A stretch of DNA of 13,034 nucleotides from contig JAQVRW010000041.1 of the NCBI GenBank assembly GCA_028700875.1, forward strand, positions 1 to 13,034, in the 5' to 3' direction. Source of the stretch: Candidatus Zixiibacteriota bacterium. GTDB taxonomy: Bacteria > Zixibacteria > MSB-5A5 > GN15 > JAAZOE01. A model generated the notes under the pieces. That model was not told the DNA's origin. It worked only from the letters and a program-made list of their open reading frames with translations, and searched no databases. Positions 664-13,034 of this stretch are shown one piece after another; position 1 is the first letter of the stretch, and every line of letters begins with the position of its first letter. The position numbers and the translations under genes were made by a program.

Positions 664-2112
664 ATGCGAGGGAGAGAGTATCGATCGGTCTCAAACTATC
701 TGCGGCCTAGCCAACGGCAGTTCTACCTGATCGATCAACTCGCATACTACTCAAAGAATCTGTACAACGTCGCGTTGTACAATGTTCGTCAGCACTACCT
801 TGAGTGGCAGGAACAAGCAACCTACATGACCGGGATTCGGCCGGATATCACAAACAACGTCGATATCCTGGTGGGATCCTACCTTCCTTACTCCCGGAAA
901 ACCTCGTATCCGTACAAAGATATCTGCAACTATGCCCGGACAAAATCGAACGAGAATTATCCGCTCCTCCACAGTGATGTTGCTCAACAAACCATCAAGA
1001 GTGTGGAAGAGGGGTACAAATCGTATTTCGGATTGTTGTGGTCGTACCGGCGGGGAAAATTGAAAGATTGTCCTCGGCCGCCCCACTATCTGGAGAAAGA
1101 CGGTCGGTACAAACTGGCGTTTCCGGCAATTCGACTCAGGTTTCGAAAGGGATATGTCACGCTCGGGGTCTCCCGTCAGTTCAAACGTCGATACGGCGTG
1201 GGAAAGAACGAACTCTCGTTCAAGATCCCGCCCCAGATCCGACCTGACCAGATCCGGGAAGTCACGATCCTGCCGATCAACAACGGACTAACCTACAAAA
1301 TCGAGTTCTCCTACACGATCAAATCCACTCCTGCCCCGGTCATCCAGGACCGGTACCTTGCAATCGATCTCGGGCTCACGAATTTTGCCACGTGCGTGGA
1401 ATCCGCTACCGGGACGGCCTTCATCCTCGACGGCTCGTATCTCAAATCAATCAACCGGTGGTACAACAAAGAGACCGCACGATTGCAGGCGATCAAAGCC
1501 AAACAACATCTGCCCCAGAACCTCACGCGCCGTCAGGCGCGGTTGCTCAACCGTCGCAACAACACGATCAACGAAGCCATGAACCGGTTTGCTGTCTACA
1601 TCGTGCAGTATGCGATCGACCGGCAGATCGGGACGATCATCCTGCCGACGTGGGACGGGATCAAACACAAGATCAAACTGGGACCGAAAACCAACCAGAA
1701 CTTTGTCCAGATCCCCTATGCGAAATTCCGGTTCAAACTGAATGGGCTTTGCCAGCAGTTCGGGATCGTCTTCGACGATACCCACGATGAACGCTATACC
1801 TCGCAGGTGGACGCGCTTGCGCGCGACCCCCTCAAGAAACCGGCGTATGGCAGAACCCGGCGGATCCAGAGAGGATTGTATCAGAGTTCGGTTGGTACGT
1901 TGATCAATGCGGACGTGAACGGGGCGTTGAACCATTTGAGGAACGTAGCCGGTGATTCCATCATCGCATGGATAATCGGTAGCGGCCGCGTCAACCGGCC
2001 GGTACGAATAAGGTTTGCCTTCGAGGGCCAAGCCCCCGAACGGATCACCAAACAGCCTTCGTACGCATTAAATCGTGATGGTGGCAACACCGTCACAAGC
2101 CACCGGTTCTAA
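664..2112 (+). CDS. tnpB: IS200/IS605-family (IS1341-type) TnpB-like protein with apparently degenerate RuvC-II and zinc-finger motifs
   Basis: The N-terminus (YRSVSNYLRPSQRQ...NLYNVALYNVRQ) fits the TnpB OrfB_IS605 N-domain pattern. AIDLGLTNFAT is RuvC-I, YTSQ is the motif that precedes the zinc finger, and INADVNGALN is RuvC-III. Where a canonical TnpB has I/V-x-L-E-D-L the sequence reads IILPTWDGI (no Glu), and no Cys pairs follow YTSQ (YTSQVDALARDPL). No tnpA gene is adjacent. Confidence 0.85.
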   Translation: MRGREYRSVSNYLRPSQRQFYLIDQLAYYSKNLYNVALYNVRQHYLEWQEQATYMTGIRPDITNNVDILVGSYLPYSRKTSYPYKDICNYARTKSNENYPLLHSDVAQQTIKSVEEGYKSYFGLLWSYRRGKLKDCPRPPHYLEKDGRYKLAFPAIRLRFRKGYVTLGVSRQFKRRYGVGKNELSFKIPPQIRPDQIREVTILPINNGLTYKIEFSYTIKSTPAPVIQDRYLAIDLGLTNFATCVESATGTAFILDGSYLKSINRWYNKETARLQAIKAKQHLPQNLTRRQARLLNRRNNTINEAMNRFAVYIVQYAIDRQIGTIILPTWDGIKHKIKLGPKTNQNFVQIPYAKFRFKLNGLCQQFGIVFDDTHDERYTSQVDALARDPLKKPAYGRTRRIQRGLYQSSVGTLINADVNGALNHLRNVAGDSIIAWIIGSGRVNRPVRIRFAFEGQAPERITKQPSYALNRDGGNTVTSHRF

Positions 2113-2170
2113 CCGGTGGTAGTTGACTTCCCGCAACTCTTCGTCACATGGCGATTCGCCCCACCGGCTG

Positions 2171-2304
2171 TGATCGACTTGATCGGGTTGATCGGGTCGT
2201 CCTCCCCTAGGATCTTTCCACTCCCCATATACCCCTCCCTACCTCTATTTCCACTGGAGAGTTCTTAGGGAGGGGAGACCCGATCAAGTCGATCAACCCG
2301 ATCA
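2171..2304. repeat. Large imperfect inverted repeat (~41-nt arms, ~52-nt spacer) immediately 3' of tnpB-like; candidate omegaRNA scaffold or IS right end
   Basis: The left arm at 2171-2211 (tgatcgacttgatcgggttgatcgggtcgtcctcccctagg) pairs with the reverse complement of 2264-2304 (cttagggaggggagacccgatcaagtcgatcaacccgatca) at roughly 80%. The arms contain the internal direct motif TTGATCGGGT. Confidence 0.5.
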
Positions 2305-2443
2305 TTGTCAGACGGATGGCTGCCAGAAGGCCGACAACGGGACGACAATCTAATAATTCGTCCATTCCACCATGCCGGTGGCGGAATCAAAAGCGAAACG
2401 GTTAATTTGGTGGAAACAAAACCGTTCAGTGCAGCCACCCCGC

Positions 2444-2608
2444 GGATCCGTGGTGGTGTCGTGGCTTCACGGCCGCATCCGGGTGGATCCGTGGTGGCGT
2501 CATGGACGGGTGGTGGTATCGCCGGTGAACGCATGGCGGTGTCATGGACCGGTGGTGGAACCCTCGTGAACCTATGACAGAATCGTGGCTGGATGGTGGC
2601 AACCATGG
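2444..2608. repeat. Degenerate tandem array with ~41-bp period (GGATCCGTGGTGG / GTCATGGAC / GTGAAC motifs), about 4 units
   Basis: ggatccgtggtgg occurs at 2444 and 2485. gtcatgga occurs at 2500 and 2541. gtgaac occurs at 2525 and 2566. GGTGGTGG-like runs sit near 2452, 2493, 2511, 2553 and 2594. The array runs into the start of the MerR-like ORF. Confidence 0.5.
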
Positions 2609-3222
2609 AATATTCACTCACTGTTGATGATATTGTACAGCAAACCGGGTTCACCACGTCGACGGTTCGGCGGTACCTGCGTGATTTCACGGACTTTATC
2701 CCGTCGAACCCGATCAACCGGAAGCAGGTCCTGTATGGCGAAGAGACCGTGGCGATCGTGACCCGGATCAGTGATCTCTACGGATCCGGGAAGTATACCC
2801 CGGACATCAGGGAGATCTTGAAGTATGAGGTACCGATGACGGTTGAGGTTCACGAGGTTGTGGAACTCCCGAAATCGGACGAAATCGCGGTTGCGATTCG
2901 TCCCGACGTCCAGGATCAGATCGACCGGGTCGTGGCGTTGGCCGAATCCCTGGTAGAAAAAATGCAGCAGATCGACGATCATGAAACCGAGATCACGGCG
3001 ATGCGGCAGACCCTGGTCGATACCCGGGCGCAGGTCACGGGGTGTATCGACCAGATGACGGCCGTGGAACGGGCGATGCGTGATGAGTCGCGAGTGGACG
3101 CACTCACCCGCGAGATCCAGCAGCAGAATGCTACCATCGCCTCGCTCACCGACGAGATTGCGGCGTTTCGTCAGCAGCCGGTGACGTTCTGGGGCTGGGT
3201 ACGCCAGACGTTCAAATTTTAA
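2605..3222 (+). CDS. MerR-like HTH transcriptional regulator with a C-terminal coiled-coil
   Basis: The N-terminus LTVDDIVQQTGFTTSTVRRYLRDF matches the MerR-family HTH pattern (T-x-x-E-x-A-x-x-x-G-V-S-x-x-T-L-R-Y-Y). The C-terminal half is heptad-like (EITAMRQTLVD...IASLTDEIAAF). The start could be ATG 2593 or 2605. A T7 run follows the stop. Confidence 0.55.
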   Translation: MEYSLTVDDIVQQTGFTTSTVRRYLRDFTDFIPSNPINRKQVLYGEETVAIVTRISDLYGSGKYTPDIREILKYEVPMTVEVHEVVELPKSDEIAVAIRPDVQDQIDRVVALAESLVEKMQQIDDHETEITAMRQTLVDTRAQVTGCIDQMTAVERAMRDESRVDALTREIQQQNATIASLTDEIAAFRQQPVTFWGWVRQTFKF

Positions 3223-3223
3223 C

Positions 3224-3350
3224 TTTTTTTCCGACAATCGACATGGACCCGGCCCCGCCAATCCCCCATAAACCATATGATGCTATACGACATCGGGAGG
3301 GGTGGCGACTATCCCGCCGTGGCGGGATGAACATCACGTTCGAAAAAAAA
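3224..3350. terminator. Convergent terminator region: a T7 run after the MerR-like gene, a hairpin at 3311-3328, and a T8 run directly after the flotillin stop on the minus strand
   Basis: cttttttt at 3223-3230. atcccgcc-gt-ggcgggat hairpin at 3311-3328. cgaaaaaaaa at 3341-3350 reads as T8 on the minus strand, adjacent to the flotillin stop (3351-3353). Archaeal terminators are typically oligo-T. Confidence 0.4.
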
Positions 3351-5354: not shown

Positions 5355-5818
5355 TCGATGACCTCACCGATTTCGTTTAACTTTACAGTATACGTCCCGT
5401 TGATCTCAAGGTTCATCCAGATGACACGGTCATAATAGTATGCGTATTCGTTTCGAAAGTTATCTGTTTCGAAATGGATCCGGTATACACACCCCGATGT
5501 GTCCATAATGTAGTACACGGTGCGAGATCCTCCCCCGGATGTGAATTTGATAGCGGCAATGCATTCATGCATTTTCGCGACCGTAATCGTCTTTACCGTC
5601 GTTGGGTCCGATATATCGGTCTCAAACGCGCCCATTCCGTCCGTCACCATTGTATCCTGCACGGTATCGGGATGATAGACAATGCAGCAGAGAACCATTA
5701 TAATGACAATACTTAGTATTCCCAAATAGTACGACTGATCTGATACCATACCATTACTGGTGATGCAAAAAATGATAAAGGTTATGACAAAAAAAAGATG
5801 ACGGGTGGTGAGGATCAT
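5339..5818 (-). CDS. Hypothetical membrane protein (159 aa): two N-terminal TM helices plus a ~110-aa C-terminal domain
   Basis: Hydrophobic stretches LFFVITFIIFCI and LGILSIVIIMVLCCIV. Its start overlaps the stop of the upstream 339-aa ORF (ATGA). Its GC is about 43%, against roughly 58% for the surrounding genes. Confidence 0.6.
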   Translation of the reverse strand: MILTTRHLFFVITFIIFCITSNGMVSDQSYYLGILSIVIIMVLCCIVYHPDTVQDTMVTDGMGAFETDISDPTTVKTITVAKMHECIAAIKFTSGGGSRTVYYIMDTSGCVYRIHFETDNFRNEYAYYYDRVIWMNLEINGTYTVKLNEIGEVIDILPA

Positions 5819-6834
5819 TCGGTCCGGAAGTCGATGATCGTCCGATCCTGCTCCGTCAACGGCATTTCATCCCGGTACGTCGATTCTGTGTCGACATTGT
5901 CAGACGCGGCAAACGTGTAGAAAATGCGGTCAGTTACCGACTTGAACAGTGTGTTGATGGCGATTTGATGACAGGGAGGGAGATTGTGAGTGGCGTCAAT
6001 GCCAAGCCGATACGTCCAGCCGTTACAGAGATCAAGGATGATCGGAGCAATCTCGTTGATGATCTCTCCCACCCCACGTATCGGCACACGGGTGCGGAAC
6101 GTCTGATCAACTGTCTTGGTCCAGAGGTAAGTTGCAGCTCGGTTGGCAGCATCACTGATATCATTGAGGAACGGGAATTCGGCGTCGCCCGTCCCAGTAA
6201 TCGGGGAGAATGCGGCGAATTCCGGATACTGACGGAACAATCGTTCCGCGGTGTGCAGTTCGGTCTCGGCGTCGAACCCATCGATGATATTACGGCTTCG
6301 TAACGCGAGCACGGCGTCAATCATGTCGGCGACCATCAGATATTCGAGGTGCTGAACGAACTGCAATGCTGACTTGTGGCAGACGTTTGGTTTCGATATA
6401 TCTGCAAGCGTTTTTGCGAAGATTGGTTTCATGTTGAAATATGTATTGATGCACGTTGGTGTGAAAATGACCGGATGGTGAACGATATCGTAAGCCTGGA
6501 TCTGTGCATGCCAGTCGTTTGCCTGCATCAATCTGACGCGATCCCATTTATCTGCGAGCAGGTAAAATGATCGCGGTTCGGCCAGTGTCTGGAATGCCAT
6601 CGCGATACGTCGTTGGTCGTCGACGTGGATTCCGGCTGGGTTTAGTCGAGTAATGGGAAACTGCATGAGGTATAGCAGAGCATCCTCAGAATAATCTATC
6701 ATGCAACCATCGGGTTGAGATAGTATATGGGTCAGCGTCACGTCGGCTTCGTACAGCGAGTAGCCCGTCTCCTGGTCAGGAGTAACACGAACCGTGACCT
6801 TGGTGACATCGTCCAATAGCCTTTTGCGTTTCAT
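5815..6834 (-). CDS. Hypothetical protein (339 aa), unknown function, first gene of the low-GC two-gene cassette
   Basis: A long ORF with protein-like composition and no motif I can recognise by eye. It is translationally coupled (4-nt overlap) to the 159-aa TM protein. Its GC is low for this window. Confidence 0.65.
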   Translation of the reverse strand: MKRKRLLDDVTKVTVRVTPDQETGYSLYEADVTLTHILSQPDGCMIDYSEDALLYLMQFPITRLNPAGIHVDDQRRIAMAFQTLAEPRSFYLLADKWDRVRLMQANDWHAQIQAYDIVHHPVIFTPTCINTYFNMKPIFAKTLADISKPNVCHKSALQFVQHLEYLMVADMIDAVLALRSRNIIDGFDAETELHTAERLFRQYPEFAAFSPITGTGDAEFPFLNDISDAANRAATYLWTKTVDQTFRTRVPIRGVGEIINEIAPIILDLCNGWTYRLGIDATHNLPPCHQIAINTLFKSVTDRIFYTFAASDNVDTESTYRDEMPLTEQDRTIIDFRTE

Positions 6835-7105: not shown

Positions 7106-8407
7106 TCAGGTCGACGCTTTCAGGTTGTAGACCGGTCGGATCCGGTCAACGATCTCGACGCTCGGCGCAATTGCGTCGATGATGGTCTGGGCGTCTTTGT
7201 AGGCGCCCGGCGCCTCGTCGAGCGTCTCCCGTCCGACCGACGTCGTGTAAATCCCCTGCATCTGGTCCCGATACTCCTCCACGCTCAACGTCCGTTTCGC
7301 AACGCTCCGGCTCATAATTCGTCCCGCCCCGTGAGGAGCGGAACAGTTCCAGTCCACATTGCCTTTTCCCACGCCGATCAATGACCCGTCTCGCATGTTG
7401 AACGGAACGATGAGCCGGTCGTCCTGGTGGCTCCGGATCGCGCCCTTCCGGATGATCAGGTCATCGAAATCGATGAAGTTGTGCACCGACTCGATCCGGT
7501 CCACAACCATTGCATCCGGGATCGTCGCCAGGATCCGGGCAATCATGGTGTCCCGGTTCAGGGCGGCATACTGCTGGGCGAAGATCATCGCGTGGTAGTA
7601 GTCGTGCGCCTGTTGGCCTTCGAGATAGGCCAGATCTTTAGGGATTCCCAACCCGAGTTCGTCCCGCATCTTCTTGATCTCAGCCCCGATCCGGTTCCGT
7701 TCGCAGGTGGTCCGGATCGCATCCAACCGGTCCTGGTATTCGCGTTCCCGGTGTTTTCCCACCGTCTTGAGGGCGAGCCGTTGGTACGCCTCGGCAACCC
7801 GCAACCCGAAGTTGCGCGACCCGCTGTGGACGACCACCCATTTCTCACCCTGTTCACCTTCGGCGACCTCGATGAAATGGTTCCCGCCCCCGAGCGTGCC
7901 GACCGCCGCCCGGACCGCGTCCGGTTCCGCCCGCACGAAGGTGCACAATTTCTCGAACCACTCGTAGGTATACTTGACCGGTTCGATCGTGGTGTCATAC
8001 GTTGCGGCAAACCGGTCGCGGAACCGGTATCCGATCTCATTGACCAATTTCCAGTCGAACCCGTGTTTCAGGTTGACGACCGCGTGGCCATGCACGTTGA
8101 ACCCGACCGGTACCGCTTTACGAACGGATCGGTCGAGCGTCGCGTAATCGATATCGATATCGCCGATGTTGACCGCGGTGATCCCGCAGCCGACATCGAC
8201 CCCGATGGTGTTGGGGATCACTTTGTCGCCGAGCGGCATGGTGAACCCGATAACGCTCCCTTTCCCGGCATGCGTGTCGGGCATGATGGCAACCGGGTTG
8301 GTAAACGCCGGGTGGTTGACGAACGTGCGAATCTGCGCAATACACTCCTCCTCCACGTCGTCGATCATCACCCGGGCGGTCGTATATTTTCCGGATATTT
8401 CGAACAT
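7106..8407 (-). CDS. rtcB: RtcB-family RNA ligase (3'-phosphate/5'-hydroxyl RNA-splicing ligase), short form (433 aa)
   Basis: Hallmark RtcB motifs MPDTHAGKG, GVDVGCG (metal-binding Cys) and GTLGGGNHFIE (Asn-His pair), with conserved His residues further on. An SD-like GGTGA lies upstream of the start. Confidence 0.9.
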   Translation of the reverse strand: MFEISGKYTTARVMIDDVEEECIAQIRTFVNHPAFTNPVAIMPDTHAGKGSVIGFTMPLGDKVIPNTIGVDVGCGITAVNIGDIDIDYATLDRSVRKAVPVGFNVHGHAVVNLKHGFDWKLVNEIGYRFRDRFAATYDTTIEPVKYTYEWFEKLCTFVRAEPDAVRAAVGTLGGGNHFIEVAEGEQGEKWVVVHSGSRNFGLRVAEAYQRLALKTVGKHREREYQDRLDAIRTTCERNRIGAEIKKMRDELGLGIPKDLAYLEGQQAHDYYHAMIFAQQYAALNRDTMIARILATIPDAMVVDRIESVHNFIDFDDLIIRKGAIRSHQDDRLIVPFNMRDGSLIGVGKGNVDWNCSAPHGAGRIMSRSVAKRTLSVEEYRDQMQGIYTTSVGRETLDEAPGAYKDAQTIIDAIAPSVEIVDRIRPVYNLKAST

Positions 8408-8627: not shown

Positions 8628-9527
8628 ATGTCACGAGTTCTTGTATTGGGAGCGACCGGGATGTTGGGCCACACTCTCTGTCGCGTGCTGGCGCAACGCC
8701 ACGGTGTGGTCGGCACGGTCCGGGGACATGCCAAAGACTACCGGTCGCCGTTGCTGGAGGTGCCGCTCTACAGTTATGTCGATATCAATAATCTGAACAG
8801 CGTTGCCGGCGCCATCCAGATGATCAATCCGGATATCGTAATCAACGCGATCGAGATGAGCAAACCCACCCTGGACGCGTCAAATCAGGACCAGACAATC
8901 GCCGTCAACAGTCTACTGCCGCACAAACTGGCAAAATATTGCCAGTATCATGGCGCCAAACTGATCCATCTCAGCAGCGACCGGGTCTTCGCTGGCACCC
9001 GGGGAAACTATGACGAGACCAGTTGTCCGGACGCGACCGATTGGTATGGCCGGACGAAATCGCTTGGCGACGTGTGGAACGACCACGACCTCACCCTCCG
9101 AGTCTCGTACATCGGGCACGAACTCTATCTGCCTGGTCCCGCACGCTACCCGAAAAAGACCGGGTTGCTCGACTGGTTCCTGCGGCAGACCTGGGCTCCG
9201 GTCCCCGGCTTCACGCAGGCGTTTTTCAGCGGGATGACGACGACCGCGGTGGCCCGGACCATCGATACGATCATCACTGACAACCCGGACCTGACGGGCC
9301 TCTACCACGTTGCGGGGCCGAAAATCTCCAAACACGATCTCCTCACCCTGATCAACGACCGGTTCAAGATCCATGCGACCATCGAGCCGGCACCCGGGTT
9401 CGTGATCGATCAGAGTCTGAACGACGACCGGTTCCGGGCCGCCACGAAGATCGAGAAGCCTACATGGCCGGAGATGATTGATGATCTGTATGCCGAACAG
9501 TTCTTGTATACGGCGGCACAACCATGA
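8628..9527 (+). CDS. NAD(P)-dependent sugar-nucleotide reductase/epimerase of the extended SDR family, RmlD-like (dTDP-4-dehydrorhamnose reductase-like)
   Basis: N-terminal Rossmann VLVLGATGMLG (GxxGxxG). HLSSDRVFAG resembles RmlD HISTDYVFDG. The catalytic YxxxK reads YGRTK. The length (299 aa) is typical of RmlD. Confidence 0.7.
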   Translation: MSRVLVLGATGMLGHTLCRVLAQRHGVVGTVRGHAKDYRSPLLEVPLYSYVDINNLNSVAGAIQMINPDIVINAIEMSKPTLDASNQDQTIAVNSLLPHKLAKYCQYHGAKLIHLSSDRVFAGTRGNYDETSCPDATDWYGRTKSLGDVWNDHDLTLRVSYIGHELYLPGPARYPKKTGLLDWFLRQTWAPVPGFTQAFFSGMTTTAVARTIDTIITDNPDLTGLYHVAGPKISKHDLLTLINDRFKIHATIEPAPGFVIDQSLNDDRFRAATKIEKPTWPEMIDDLYAEQFLYTAAQP

Positions 9528-10000
9528 CACGTATTGACACCGTACAGAAGAGGAAAGCGTTTGAGAAAGTGTCGAGTCTTGGCGACATTCTGTTTGGGAG
9601 ACGGGAGTATCGCGACTACCACAAACTTCGAGTGGAGTTGTTGCGCATTCTCGTTCACATGGATCCGGCCACCCAACAGGCGTTCAGGCAAGAGATGCCG
9701 AGGAGTCGGGGCGGGAGCCGGCGTCTGTATGACGACGTTATTGCGCTGGTCGAGGTCTCGAACCTGTCCCCCGACGACCGAGCGGTGTATATCACATTAG
9801 ACAACCTTGCTTACACTTGCGATCGGTATGGCGACGATCCGAAGACCTTTGGTCGCATGCATGCTTCAATTGCCCGTGACTATAAGAAGGTACAGCCGTC
9901 TCTTGCGACAATGATGGCAAAATCATCGTCGCTCCTCAAAGACGATATCGAATCGCGAATGATCAGTATCGACAGTTATCTTGCGCGTATGGTGGGCTGA
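9524..10000 (+). CDS. Hypothetical protein (158 aa) translationally coupled to the rmlD-like gene
   Basis: Its ATG overlaps the stop of the upstream gene (ATGA at 9524-9527). The composition is protein-like, and I recognise no motif. Confidence 0.55.
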   Translation: MTRIDTVQKRKAFEKVSSLGDILFGRREYRDYHKLRVELLRILVHMDPATQQAFRQEMPRSRGGSRRLYDDVIALVEVSNLSPDDRAVYITLDNLAYTCDRYGDDPKTFGRMHASIARDYKKVQPSLATMMAKSSSLLKDDIESRMISIDSYLARMVG

Positions 10001-10002
10001 GC

Positions 10003-10185
10003 ATGGTGGTGCCGGGAAAATGTAACAATCTGGCGGTGGTGGCGAGCATTCTCCTGATCTTCGGTGGGGTCATGGTGGCAGTCCTCACTGAGTATGGAGT
10101 GGTCGGGATTGCCATCATATTCTTCGGGTTTACTATCTGGAGGATTGACGGAGTTGTCGATTTCTGTTCGGACGTGGAATCGTGA
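10003..10185 (+). CDS. Small hydrophobic protein (60 aa) with two predicted TM segments
   Basis: Starts 2 nt after the stop of the preceding ORF. The segments LAVVASILLIFGGVMVAVL and VVGIAIIFFGFTIW are strongly hydrophobic. Confidence 0.4.
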   Translation: MVVPGKCNNLAVVASILLIFGGVMVAVLTEYGVVGIAIIFFGFTIWRIDGVVDFCSDVES

Positions 10186-10769: not shown

Positions 10770-10952
10770 GCTATCGGCTCTCCAACCAATTCGATATCAC
10801 ACAATGGCTCGTTGGACAAACGGGTCCGTCTCGGCCGTCTGTTCACCGAGAGAACAGAGTATTGGTCACCGAAGTATATAAACGTTGTCGGTTGAATAAT
10901 TGAGAAACGTTACCACATAACAGAAAATAGGGCGTTGACGTATGACGGGTTG

Positions 10953-11333
10953 TCAACCAACAACATTGTAATCGTCCAATACGGTTGGAAAACTCCCGTC
11001 TTGTGGTTGATGTGTCGTCACGTTGACCGATACCGGATACGTGATATTCTCCACCGTCACCGATGTGGGATCCCACCGTTTCGCTGGGCCTGTCCACTGG
11101 ACCTCCAGACGAACTCCGGGGTGCAGACCGGTCAGGGTGAACTTGTCGATCCCGGTGACCTTCCACAGCGTTCCCCGGGTATCTTCGACGATGGTTCCCG
11201 CAATTCCTCTGATGGTGATCGTCTCGGTATGGACCTCGGTGAGTTCGGTATGCAGAGGGATACCGAGGAAATATACTACGGCTACCAGAATTACGACCGC
11301 AAGAATGCCGTCAAGAGAAATATCGTCAGACAT
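10953..11333 (-). CDS. Hypothetical membrane-anchored protein (126 aa; N-terminal TM helix plus a beta-rich extracytoplasmic domain)
   Basis: An internal ATG (11331-11333) of the 204-aa ORF yields MSDDISLDGILAVVILVAVVYFLGIPL.... This ATG overlaps the stop of the upstream macro-domain gene (ATGTCTGA), which implies coupled translation. Confidence 0.55.
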   Translation of the reverse strand: MSDDISLDGILAVVILVAVVYFLGIPLHTELTEVHTETITIRGIAGTIVEDTRGTLWKVTGIDKFTLTGLHPGVRLEVQWTGPAKRWDPTSVTVENITYPVSVNVTTHQPQDGSFPTVLDDYNVVG

Positions 11334-11763
11334 TGCAATTGCCTCGTTCGACGGGCATCCAGACCTCGTGCCGGTTGTCGAGCATATCGTCCAACACCGC
11401 CAACACCTCGTCCTGGTTGAGACCACCGAGCCCGGCGCCGAGCAACGGAAATGCGGCGGGAACATCGATGAACTTGTTGTAGAAGGCAAGCCCACTGCTG
11501 ATAAGGCTGATATCGGACCGATCCCGCCAGTGGTGTTTCGTCGGGAACAGCACGACGTCCGGCCCATTTTCGTTTTTCCAGAGCAGGGGGCGACCCAGGG
11601 TCAAGAGGTTGGCACGACACGCCGCCTGGTATGCGGGCAGCATGGCGGGAAACCGGCGTCAGAACTGGAGGGCAAGCCCGGCCCCCATGACTCCGACACA
11701 GTTGACCGGGTTGACCAACACCGGTTTGGTGCTCGCGAAGATATCTCCGTAGTTGATCTGCAT
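11326..11763 (-). pseudogene. DarG/TARG1-like macro domain (ADP-ribosylglycohydrolase family) interrupted by an in-frame TGA at codon 35
   Basis: The minus-strand translation reads MQINYGDIFASTKPVLVNPVNCVGVMGAGLALQF*RRFPAMLPAYQAACRAN...VVLFPTKHHWRDRSDISLISSGLAFYNKFIDVPAAFPLLGAGLGGLNQDEVLAVLDDML.... This matches the DarG N-terminal macro-domain pattern (VNtVNtVGVMGKGIALqFKrrFPenY..Y..AC; iNFPTKkHWR; iaiPpLGaGnGGL). The TGA sits where a Lys/Arg is conserved (QF[K/R]RRFP), and CGA to TGA at a CpG is a single transition. The DarG sequence is recalled from memory. Confidence 0.7.
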
Positions 11764-11798
11764 ATCGAATGGTTGTAGGTGAGAGAAGATAAGCGTAT

Positions 11799-12530
11799 GG
11801 TTCCATTGGAACCCGCCACGAGGCCACACTTTCCTATCGATCCGGGATCCCGGGTAATCATCGAGGGTAGGGCGAATTGGCCACGGTAAATGCGCTGATC
11901 GGCCGGTGCCACTGGAGATTGCAAAATGGTCCAGTGGAAGTCTCTACAGATTACGACGGATAGGCGAAATGCCGACCGTTCCGGTGACATCTCCATCGAC
12001 GATCCCGGGGCTTCGTGAGCAGCAGATCCGCAATCGCGCTTCCGATGGAACTCATCTACGGGGTTTGAAGACGGGAATTACCGATTCATCCGGTTTTCAG
12101 AAGAATTCTACCGGAAGGGAGGGGGGAGGCCGCACCTTCCGAAGGAGGGTGAAATGGGAAGATACCCCGGGTATCTTCCAAATTTCTGATAAAATGGATT
12201 GTTGTTGAGGTATGCAACTCATGGTAGATAAAGGTGCCGGCCACCTCGGATCCGGGCACCGGGGATACCTTTTTTTCCGGGTTGGAGTGGAAGGTGCGGC
12301 CTCCCCCCTCCCTTCCGCTCGACGTTTCTTCTGCATCTACAATTTTTCCACTGGAACCACTCAGATGCAGTTTTTGGTCGTGGAATGGCAAATGCAGCCT
12401 CACCGTCTCTTCTCTTCGATGCCCATTCCTCGGTGGATCGTTCCATGGGAACTGACAAAACTCCATTCGAAACCCCTAAATAGGTTGTGGACAATCTCTG
12501 ATCGTGACCCCCGACTCCATCCGAGACGAA
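11799..12530. other. Candidate replication origin (oriC) upstream of orc1/cdc6, with ORB-like elements, inverted repeats and an AT-rich candidate unwinding element
   Basis: Mini-ORB-like cores: GTTCCATTGGAAC (11799-11811), CCACTGGAG...TCCAGTGGAAG (11908-11940), TTCCACTGGAA (12346-12356) and GTTCCATGGGAAC (12440-12452). The canonical archaeal mini-ORB is TCCAGTGGAAAC. The AT-rich segment 12180-12232 has about 33% GC. The region sits directly 5' of orc1/cdc6. Confidence 0.65.
12113..12316. repeat. Perfect 28-bp inverted repeat (ggaagggaggggggaggccgcaccttcc, at 12113-12140 and 12289-12316) with G-strings, flanking a 23-bp palindrome and the AT-rich stretch
   Basis: An exact reverse-complement match seen directly in the sequence. 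An inner palindrome ggaagataccccgggtatcttcc lies at 12157-12179. G-runs are reminiscent of the ORB G-string. Confidence 0.7.
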
Positions 12531-13034
12531 ATGCGGCACCGGATCGCGACCGCCCGGCAGGCGGCTTCCTCGATCTTCACCGATCCCAACGCACTCTCGA
12601 ACGAATACGTGCCGACCCACCTGATCGCCCGGGACGACCAGATCCTCGACGTCCTGGACATCTTCCTCCCGACGTTCCGCACCGGCGCCAAGATTCGGAA
12701 CCACATCATCCTCGGTCCCACCGGGTGCGGGAAGACCGTGGTCGCTCGCTACGTGATGCGATTCGTTAACGACGAGATTGCTACCGAAGCCGAGACGGCG
12801 CCGGCGGACAAACCGACGATCCGCCCAATCTACGTCCTGTGCCGGGACAACCGGACCAAAGTATCTATCTTGATCAGCATCATCACCGATCTCGACCCGA
12901 CGAGCAAATTTATCAATCGCGGGATCCGGTACGACGAATACGTGGCCGAGATGGTCCGGCTCATCAATCGGCTTAACGTCAGTCTGGTCATCCTCTTCGA
13001 CGAGATTGATCAGGCCAATCCTGCAGAAATGTCC
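12531..13034 (+). CDS. cdc6: Orc1/Cdc6 origin-recognition AAA+ ATPase (N-terminal 168 aa; continues beyond the window)
   Basis: EYVPTHLIARDDQILDVLDIFLP fits the Orc1/Cdc6 N-terminal pattern. Walker A is GPTGCGKT. Walker B is LVILFDEID. The frame is open to the window end, and an in-frame TAA lies at 12477-12479 upstream. ATG 12531 is preferred, with GTG 12504 a possible alternative. Confidence 0.9.
   Translation, partial: MRHRIATARQAASSIFTDPNALSNEYVPTHLIARDDQILDVLDIFLPTFRTGAKIRNHIILGPTGCGKTVVARYVMRFVNDEIATEAETAPADKPTIRPIYVLCRDNRTKVSILISIITDLDPTSKFINRGIRYDEYVAEMVRLINRLNVSLVILFDEIDQANPAEMS

Follow-up and report, generated by a model that had tools for sequence, protein, structure and literature searches.

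What does a stop codon in the middle of an otherwise family-typical gene stand for, an error, a recoded or leaky codon, or a gene that has been lost? This question is raised by a macro-domain open reading frame (ORF) within a 13,034-bp stretch of DNA, the window of this analysis, which is a whole contig of a metagenome-assembled genome (MAG) at NCBI (locus tags PHR28_031xx). The minus-strand frame 11763..11326 translates as MQINYGDIFASTKPVLVNPVNCVGVMGAGLALQF*RRFPAMLPAY...ERGNCNV*, and the TGA at codon 35 is the sole internal stop of this 145-codon frame. A first-pass annotation of the sequence had considered a recently inactivated gene, more precisely an antitoxin orphaned by the loss of its DarT toxin, and as alternatives a sequencing error or recoding of the stop codon. 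Recent inactivation is also the reading favored here, on the grounds of a TGA that is shared between assemblies and a sequence that is otherwise typical of its family: the locus is probably a gene for a standalone DarG2-like macrodomain, dispensable and located on an archaeal replicon, that a nonsense change has recently turned into a pseudogene.

The predicted product is a DarG/TARG1-class macro domain

When read through the stop, the sequence matched the Pfam family Macro (PF01661) from position 1 to 117 of the 118-position profile, with 33.3 bits at a cut-off of 22. It also matched the NCBIfam DarG profile NF048014 with 127 bits (cut-off 250 bits, positions 2-141 of 338) and the PADLOC DarG profile with 125 bits (positions 3-136 of 329), and phmmer retrieved DarG-type chains only (E 1e-23 to 5M3I). 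The AlphaFold2 (AF2) model of the read-through sequence adopts the three-layer alpha/beta/alpha macro fold with a predicted local distance difference test score (pLDDT) of 94.9 and a predicted template modeling score (pTM) of 0.89. A Foldseek search of the PDB with this model gave 229 matches at E <= 0.001, ranks 1-8 of which were DarG and TARG1; the ranks inspected held macrodomains plus computationally designed serine hydrolases of the OSH55 series. The DarG macrodomains 5M3I, 5M3E and 5M31 were matched best, followed by TARG1 and SCO6735, and the template modeling (TM) scores to the DarG macrodomains of M. tuberculosis, T. aquaticus and T. africanus were 0.81-0.84. Judged by profiles and predicted structure, the ORF is therefore a DarG/TARG1-class (ALC1-like) macro domain along its whole length, as the first-pass annotation had proposed.

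The motifs of the class are all present, i.e., VNPVN with Asn21, the GVMGAG loop, FPTK with Lys76, and GAGLGGL. When 119 of the homologues listed from the database (131-194 aa, median 149 aa) were aligned with the query, the columns N21, G24, G27, G29 and K76 were invariant. Asn21 is equivalent to N22 of T. aquaticus DarG (TaqDarG), and Lys76 to TaqDarG K80 and TARG1 K84; the mutations K80A and N22A hit the activity of TaqDarG hardest (PMC5179494). As claimed, the TGA stands where the family conserves a basic residue: in 112 of the 119 homologues, column 35 holds Lys or Arg (K 86, R 26, A 5, H 1, L 1). With the stop masked, the read-through sequence agreed with 45 of the 47 columns that have a conservation of at least 80%, a level of agreement also seen in intact homologues. 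The nearest full-length relative obtained by protein search (P0002, 64% identical) is intact and has AAA (Lys) at codon 35; the first-pass annotation had regarded the TGA as compatible with CpG deamination of a CGA codon. A search of 5.8 billion proteins turned up no intact allele closer than this 64%.

Asn21 and the Gly loop are encoded 5' of the stop and Lys76 3' of it. In the AF2 model, residues 1-40 provide two central-sheet strands (beta1, beta2), the Gly loop and helix alpha1. The stretch of 34 aa upstream of the stop was called as an ORF of its own by gene callers in four of the related assemblies described below (L028, L030, L031 and L032). The next ATG is that of Met41 (11643..11641), which lies 15 nt 3' of the TGA, and PGAP annotated only the 105-aa remainder that starts there, as hypothetical protein MDD4050892.1 (PHR28_03185). 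According to the model, such a fragment lacks the N-terminal ADP-ribose-binding elements, which agrees with the first-pass annotation.

The stop codon recurs in non-identical assemblies

The TGA was present in every recovered assembly of this population that reaches codon 35. These comprise L028 (Logan SRR22315503), which is 100% identical to the window, and five non-identical assemblies, L001 (ENA ERZ27250894), L029 (JGI Ga0172377), L030 (ENA ERZ27247350, a 24,107-bp contig, L030/L037), L031 (JGI 3300035208) and L032 (Logan SRR6484787); a further contig, L034 (JGI Ga0172381), ends short of codon 35. Except for L028, the related assemblies share 98.5-99.4% nucleotide identity with the window and contain at least three protein haplotypes. 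When JGI metagenome contigs were searched with a pattern of fixed flanks and NNN at codon 35, one contig matched, again with TGA, and nothing matched the same pattern in viral contigs. A scan of genome contigs for close relatives yielded distant bacterial ones only (<=50% identity). The idea that a sequencing or assembly error created the stop is refuted by the occurrence of the same codon in five non-identical assemblies, and with ENA, JGI, Logan and NCBI all represented such an error is practically excluded.

The macro gene as a probable young pseudogene

Based on homology with enzymes such as SCO6735 and AdfM, the intact protein would be expected to take ADP-ribose off DNA bases or proteins. 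In the scenario that we prefer, its gene would be variable cargo on an archaeal replicon, located beside an Orc1/Cdc6 origin, and codon 35, for a conserved Lys or Arg, would have become TGA by one nonsense change. Normal termination would then yield a 34-residue peptide with Asn21 and the Gly-rich loop, and re-initiation at best a 105-residue remainder with the catalytic-type Lys76; neither piece would be expected to fold as a macro domain alone, and a pseudogene would result. Loss of function, the substrate of the enzyme and the timing are what we infer here. Function would be lost because the stop splits Asn21 and the loop from Lys76, and because the Met41 product lacks two core strands; the decay would be recent, since the read-through sequence is as family-typical as intact homologues.

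The comparison of the window with L030 fits relaxed constraint on the macro gene. The two copies differ by six non-synonymous and four synonymous changes, corresponding to a pN of 0.018, the highest on the contig, and to a ratio of non-synonymous to synonymous divergence (pN/pS) of 0.46, as compared to 0.09 for RtcB and 0 for cdc6 and SPFH. Divergence between the two contigs is a mosaic: it is 0% at 664-3350 (TnpB, MerR-like) and 9524-10185, and reaches 1.6-4.9% across 10770-12333 (origin 4.9%), with 1.5% in RtcB and 3.3% at 1-663, which suggests frequent recombination between haplotypes. Within the macro gene, 9 of the 10 differences fall into codons 103-136, and the tract that contains the TGA (codons 1-102, 306 nt) differs only by K13Q. 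Because of this single difference next to divergent flanks, the tract is, as far as the pattern of substitutions goes, either younger than its flanks or spread by recombination.

Several of these observations also weigh against a pseudogene. With six plus four changes, a pN/pS of 0.46 is indistinguishable from 1 or from about 0.2, and since the TGA tract differs at one site, there is no leverage on constraint after the stop. In addition, the ORF is otherwise pristine in all haplotypes, without a frameshift or a second stop, and the stop persists in haplotypes whose flanks differ by 2-5%. A pristine ORF with a persistent stop would also be expected if the stop was tolerated or leaky.

Readthrough, recoding and split products

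Leaky or programmed readthrough of the UGA by a near-cognate tRNA (Arg, Trp or Cys), giving a low and possibly regulated dose of the full-length protein, would make the stop an expression throttle rather than a lesion. The intact and family-typical remainder of the ORF and the occurrence of the stop in all haplotypes are in favor of this explanation, as is the C that follows the stop, a weak termination context in bacteria and eukaryotes. However, RtcB on the same contig terminates with the identical TGA-CGC, and its C-terminus coincides with the last position of the Pfam model. Moreover, no stimulatory structure stands out, and the TGA tract is near-identical between haplotypes, so that persistence of the stop needs no selection. 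Redefinition of stop codons in Archaea has been demonstrated only for selenocysteine (Sec) and pyrrolysine (Pyl; review PMC8211752). We therefore regard readthrough, the main rival of a pseudogene, as unlikely. A more specific version, in which a maintained leaky stop is perhaps decoded by an Arg tRNA that restores the basic residue and provides traces of a DNA de-ADP-ribosylase beside the origin of an archaeal mobile replicon, is quite improbable; if true, no earlier case of programmed UGA readthrough without Sec or Pyl would exist in Archaea, and it would be evidence for ADP-ribosylation-based conflict in archaea. Insertion of Sec or reassignment of the codon could be considered as the codon is TGA and Sec is used by some archaea. 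But genes on the contig terminate most often with TGA: this codon is the true stop of 8 of the 13 other genes checked, and also ends the macro gene and orf126, the ORF that follows it. Rfam gave no match at the gathering threshold and no SECIS (Sec insertion sequence) family match at E <= 5. No tRNA gene, and hence no suppressor tRNA gene, was found by a tRNA scan of the 24-kb contig, and Cys occupies column 35 in none of the 119 aligned homologues. A GC-rich hairpin of 9 bp (CAUGCUGCC...GGCGGCGUG) is predicted at window positions 11600-11645 (-), about 17 nt 3' of the TGA; its stability is no better than that of shuffled sequence (z = -0.9), and it was rejected as a SECIS-like or stimulatory element. 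Taken together, stop usage, the Rfam and tRNA scans, the content of column 35 and the lack of a significant hairpin led us to reject Sec insertion and reassignment, which on this evidence are very unlikely and hardly credible as the meaning of the TGA.

A functional split of the gene is conceivable as well, in which re-initiation at Met41 produces a 105-aa fragment that is active alone or together with the 34-aa peptide. The ATG lies close to the stop, the 105-aa ORF was annotated by gene callers and PGAP, and termination-reinitiation has been described in archaea. However, Met41 is ancestral rather than a new start, the residue being Met in 85 of the 119 aligned homologues. It is not preceded by a Shine-Dalgarno-like motif, and its AUG is sequestered in the predicted 9-bp hairpin. 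As the fragment would also lack beta1, beta2, Asn21 and the Gly loop, an active split product appears highly improbable.

The protein belongs to a standalone branch

The first-pass annotation had noted the lack of a DarT partner, and this was confirmed by a dedicated search. A DarT hidden Markov model (HMM) was built from 13 DarT proteins that adjoin more distant homologues and was run with --max against six-frame translations; in the window and L030 nothing was detected (best E 1.8). Likewise, the gene lists of L030, L031 and L037 contained no match to the DarT Pfam family PF14487. Homologous macro domains were compared at 20 genomic loci; 12 of these have an adjacent or fused DarT and are the more distant ones (<=41% identity). 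The four closest genomic relatives, L003 (50%), L006 (49%), L007 (45%) and L004 (44%), have no DarT within 8 kb. Because these four are DarT-less and the DarT-linked loci are more distant, the macro protein is placed, by sequence relationship, in a standalone branch.

This placement bears on the proposal that the gene is what remains of a DarTG toxin-antitoxin pair in which darT was lost and the antitoxin gene became dispensable and decayed. In its favor, DarG is the strongest match of the query by profile and structure, and 12 of the 20 loci do have DarT. Against it, the ORF ends at 145 codons without the C-terminal, DarT-binding half of DarG, which is reflected in a profile coverage of 2-141 of 338 and a score of 127 bits, below the 250-bit equivalog cut-off. 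The aligned homologues are likewise short (131-194 aa in 119 of 119), the six-frame search was empty, and the closest relatives (44-50%) are standalone. An orphan antitoxin is therefore unsupported and quite unlikely, and with a score below the cut-off and no darT adjacent or fused, the gene was rejected as a DarG antitoxin gene. Two of the DarT-linked loci showed peculiarities of their own. At the 'Ca. Oleincola secundus' locus (L016, 1604-2195), DarT is present as two overlapping ORFs and may be disrupted, and a Rhodoferax MAG locus (L022, 6785-7998) has two tandem DarT-like genes 5' of DarG.

Genomic context and origin of the contig

The features of the macro locus and its surroundings are listed in Table 1.

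Table 1. Coordinates of the macro gene, its parts and the adjoining features in the window
Feature	Position	Strand	Basis
Standalone DarG/TARG1-class macro-domain gene, 145 codons with in-frame TGA	11326..11763	-	Translation, profiles, AF2 model, Foldseek
In-frame TGA, codon 35, context TTC TGA CGC	11659..11661	-	Translation; same codon in related assemblies
N-terminal 34 codons: beta1, beta2, Asn21, GVMGAG loop	11662..11763	-	Model secondary structure, invariant columns
Residual 105-aa ORF from Met41, keeps catalytic-type Lys76 (FPTK)	11326..11643	-	Annotation, alignment
orf126, 126 aa, N-terminal hydrophobic helix	10953..11333	-	Translation; lineage-specific
Origin-like intergenic region, 767 bp	11764..12530	.	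ORB-like boxes, inverted repeat
orc1/cdc6, 5' part, runs off the window	12531..13034	+	Pfam Cdc6_lid, WHD_Cdc6

Upstream of the macro gene, the first-pass annotation had assumed origin DNA, and this was borne out by boxes resembling origin recognition boxes (ORB) and by a divergent orc1/cdc6 gene on longer contigs. ORB-like TCCANTGGA boxes are located at 11802, 11930 and 12347, three of the five in the whole window, where 0.31 would be expected. A G-rich inverted repeat of 34 nt (12107-12140 / 12289-12322, 94% complementary) flanks a core of 148 nt that is richer in A+T. The length of the origin varies by strain; L030 has about 100 nt extra, partly duplicated, around window positions 12263-12333. 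The orc1/cdc6 gene, which is divergent from the macro gene, is complete in L030 (13108-14391, 427 aa). Every named homologue of its product is archaeal, with identities of at most 35% outside the lineage, and the protein is 30-33% identical to the Cdc6 proteins of Methanosarcina and of haloarchaeal plasmids. Given the archaeal Orc1/Cdc6 and the ORB-like repeats, the Zixibacteria label is likely a binning error, and the contig labelled 'candidate division Zixibacteria bacterium' is probably mis-binned archaeal DNA, of a chromosome or a mobile element.

The macro gene does not appear to be a fixed neighbor of this origin. In L036, whose cdc6 is 71% identical at the nucleotide level, homology breaks off within the origin region; the upstream DNA holds no macro gene, and sequence resembling the end of an insertion sequence (IS) is found where the macro module would be. 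In L035 (cdc6 75% identical), the upstream sequence is too short to bear on the presence of the macro gene. Because L036 lacks the gene upstream of cdc6, the macro-orf126 pair is, on this comparison, variable and dispensable cargo. The sole intact close orthologue (64%; L002, 1-719, GCA_025563055.1) has a different context without ORB boxes; it is preceded by small ORFs on the minus strand and by a TATA-like palindrome, TTCCATATAATTATATGGAA. These different surroundings indicate that the macro gene may move between contexts.

The 24-kb contig is rich in ORFans and encodes two TnpB, LAGLIDADG, MerR-like, SPFH and RtcB proteins and a second, weak ORC-like gene; its proteins gave no PHROG or viral hallmark matches, and its ends do not overlap. 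The two TnpB / IS605 OrfB genes encode 482 aa each (L037 4383-5831 and 8664-10112; the window copy is at 664-2112, +). The related contig L036 has sequence resembling the TnpB flanks at either end, and the IS thus appears to be active in this lineage. The divergent ORC-CDC6-like protein (window 5815-6834, -; 339 aa) matched PF24389 with 29.7 bits (cut-off 27) and had no NCBIfam, PHROG or PADLOC match; its pN/pS between strains is 0.6. The short RtcB-family ligase (window 7106-8407, -; 433 aa), which lies among ORFans, is under strong purifying selection and shows the highest synonymous divergence among the complete genes of the window.

Overlap of the macro gene with orf126

The stop codon of the macro gene and the ATG of orf126 overlap by 8 nt (ATGTCTGA, 11333..11326). 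The described overlap with an ORF for a membrane-anchored protein is thus real, including the N-terminal hydrophobic helix, but 'translationally fused' is a misnomer, as the two ORFs overlap in different frames and would be coupled at most. Because a GAGG motif precedes its own ATG (about 9 nt 5'), orf126 could be translated independently of the macro gene. Its product had no Pfam, NCBIfam, PHROG or PADLOC match, and the sole homologue among 5.8 billion proteins is a strain variant with 98% identity. Other ORFs share this DNA: a 251-aa ORF on the plus strand (11023-11778) is antisense to orf126 and the macro gene, and the frame of orf126 is open further 5' to an ATG at 11567 (204 aa). As these and a further overlapping ORF of 178 aa had no family matches, all three were rejected as alternative genes; the 251-aa antisense and the 204-aa ORF are probably non-coding shadows.

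Implications and comparison with known systems

For annotation, these results mean that PHR28_03185 should be flagged as a fragment of a macrodomain pseudogene and that the assignment of the contig to a Zixibacteria MAG looks like a binning mistake. The macro gene is a further, broken member of an already known class, and a nonsense allele is carried by every assembly of its population that reaches codon 35. The locus would place a standalone DarG2-like macrodomain of the AdfM class on an archaeal replicon, where conflicts based on DNA ADP-ribosylation are hardly explored.

The best structural matches are the DarG macrodomains (5M31/5M3E from T. aquaticus, 5M3I from M. tuberculosis, and 7OMU, T. 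africanus DarTG), to which the query is 35-36% identical and with which it shares the VNxVN Asn, the GVMGxG loop, the FPTK Lys and the GxGLGGL loop. Unlike DarG, the query has neither the C-terminal DarT-binding half nor a darT neighbor, and it is interrupted by a stop. Human TARG1 (C6orf130; 4J5R/4J5S) belongs to the same fold class (TM 0.76) and conserves the catalytic Lys, but is only 19-20% identical. At the position presumed to correspond to Asp125 of TARG1, the query has Gly, as DarG does.

AdfM (PhiKZ gp104, PhiPA3 gp108) is likewise a standalone DarG2-like macrodomain without a partner toxin, and it is encoded on a mobile replicon, as the query may be. The macro domain of DarG by itself can neutralize DarT (PMC5179494). 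The top phage match was PhiPA3 gp108, with 33.6% identity over 90% of the query; this protein, the chimallivirus anti-DarT factor, removes ADP-ribose from DNA (PMC13309987). In contrast to AdfM, the query is located on an archaeal replicon without PHROG matches, its gene is inactivated in the reading preferred here, and no DarT-type threat is known for the host. SCO6735 of Streptomyces coelicolor (5E3B; TM 0.70 to the query) is a chromosomal, standalone ALC1-like member that reverses thymidine-linked DNA ADP-ribosylation (PMC9411070). In SCO6735 the catalytic Lys is replaced by Gln and the mobile loop is longer, whereas the query keeps the DarG/TARG1 Lys (K76). By analogy, SCO6735 and phage AdfM are better counterparts of the macro gene than the antitoxin of DarTG.

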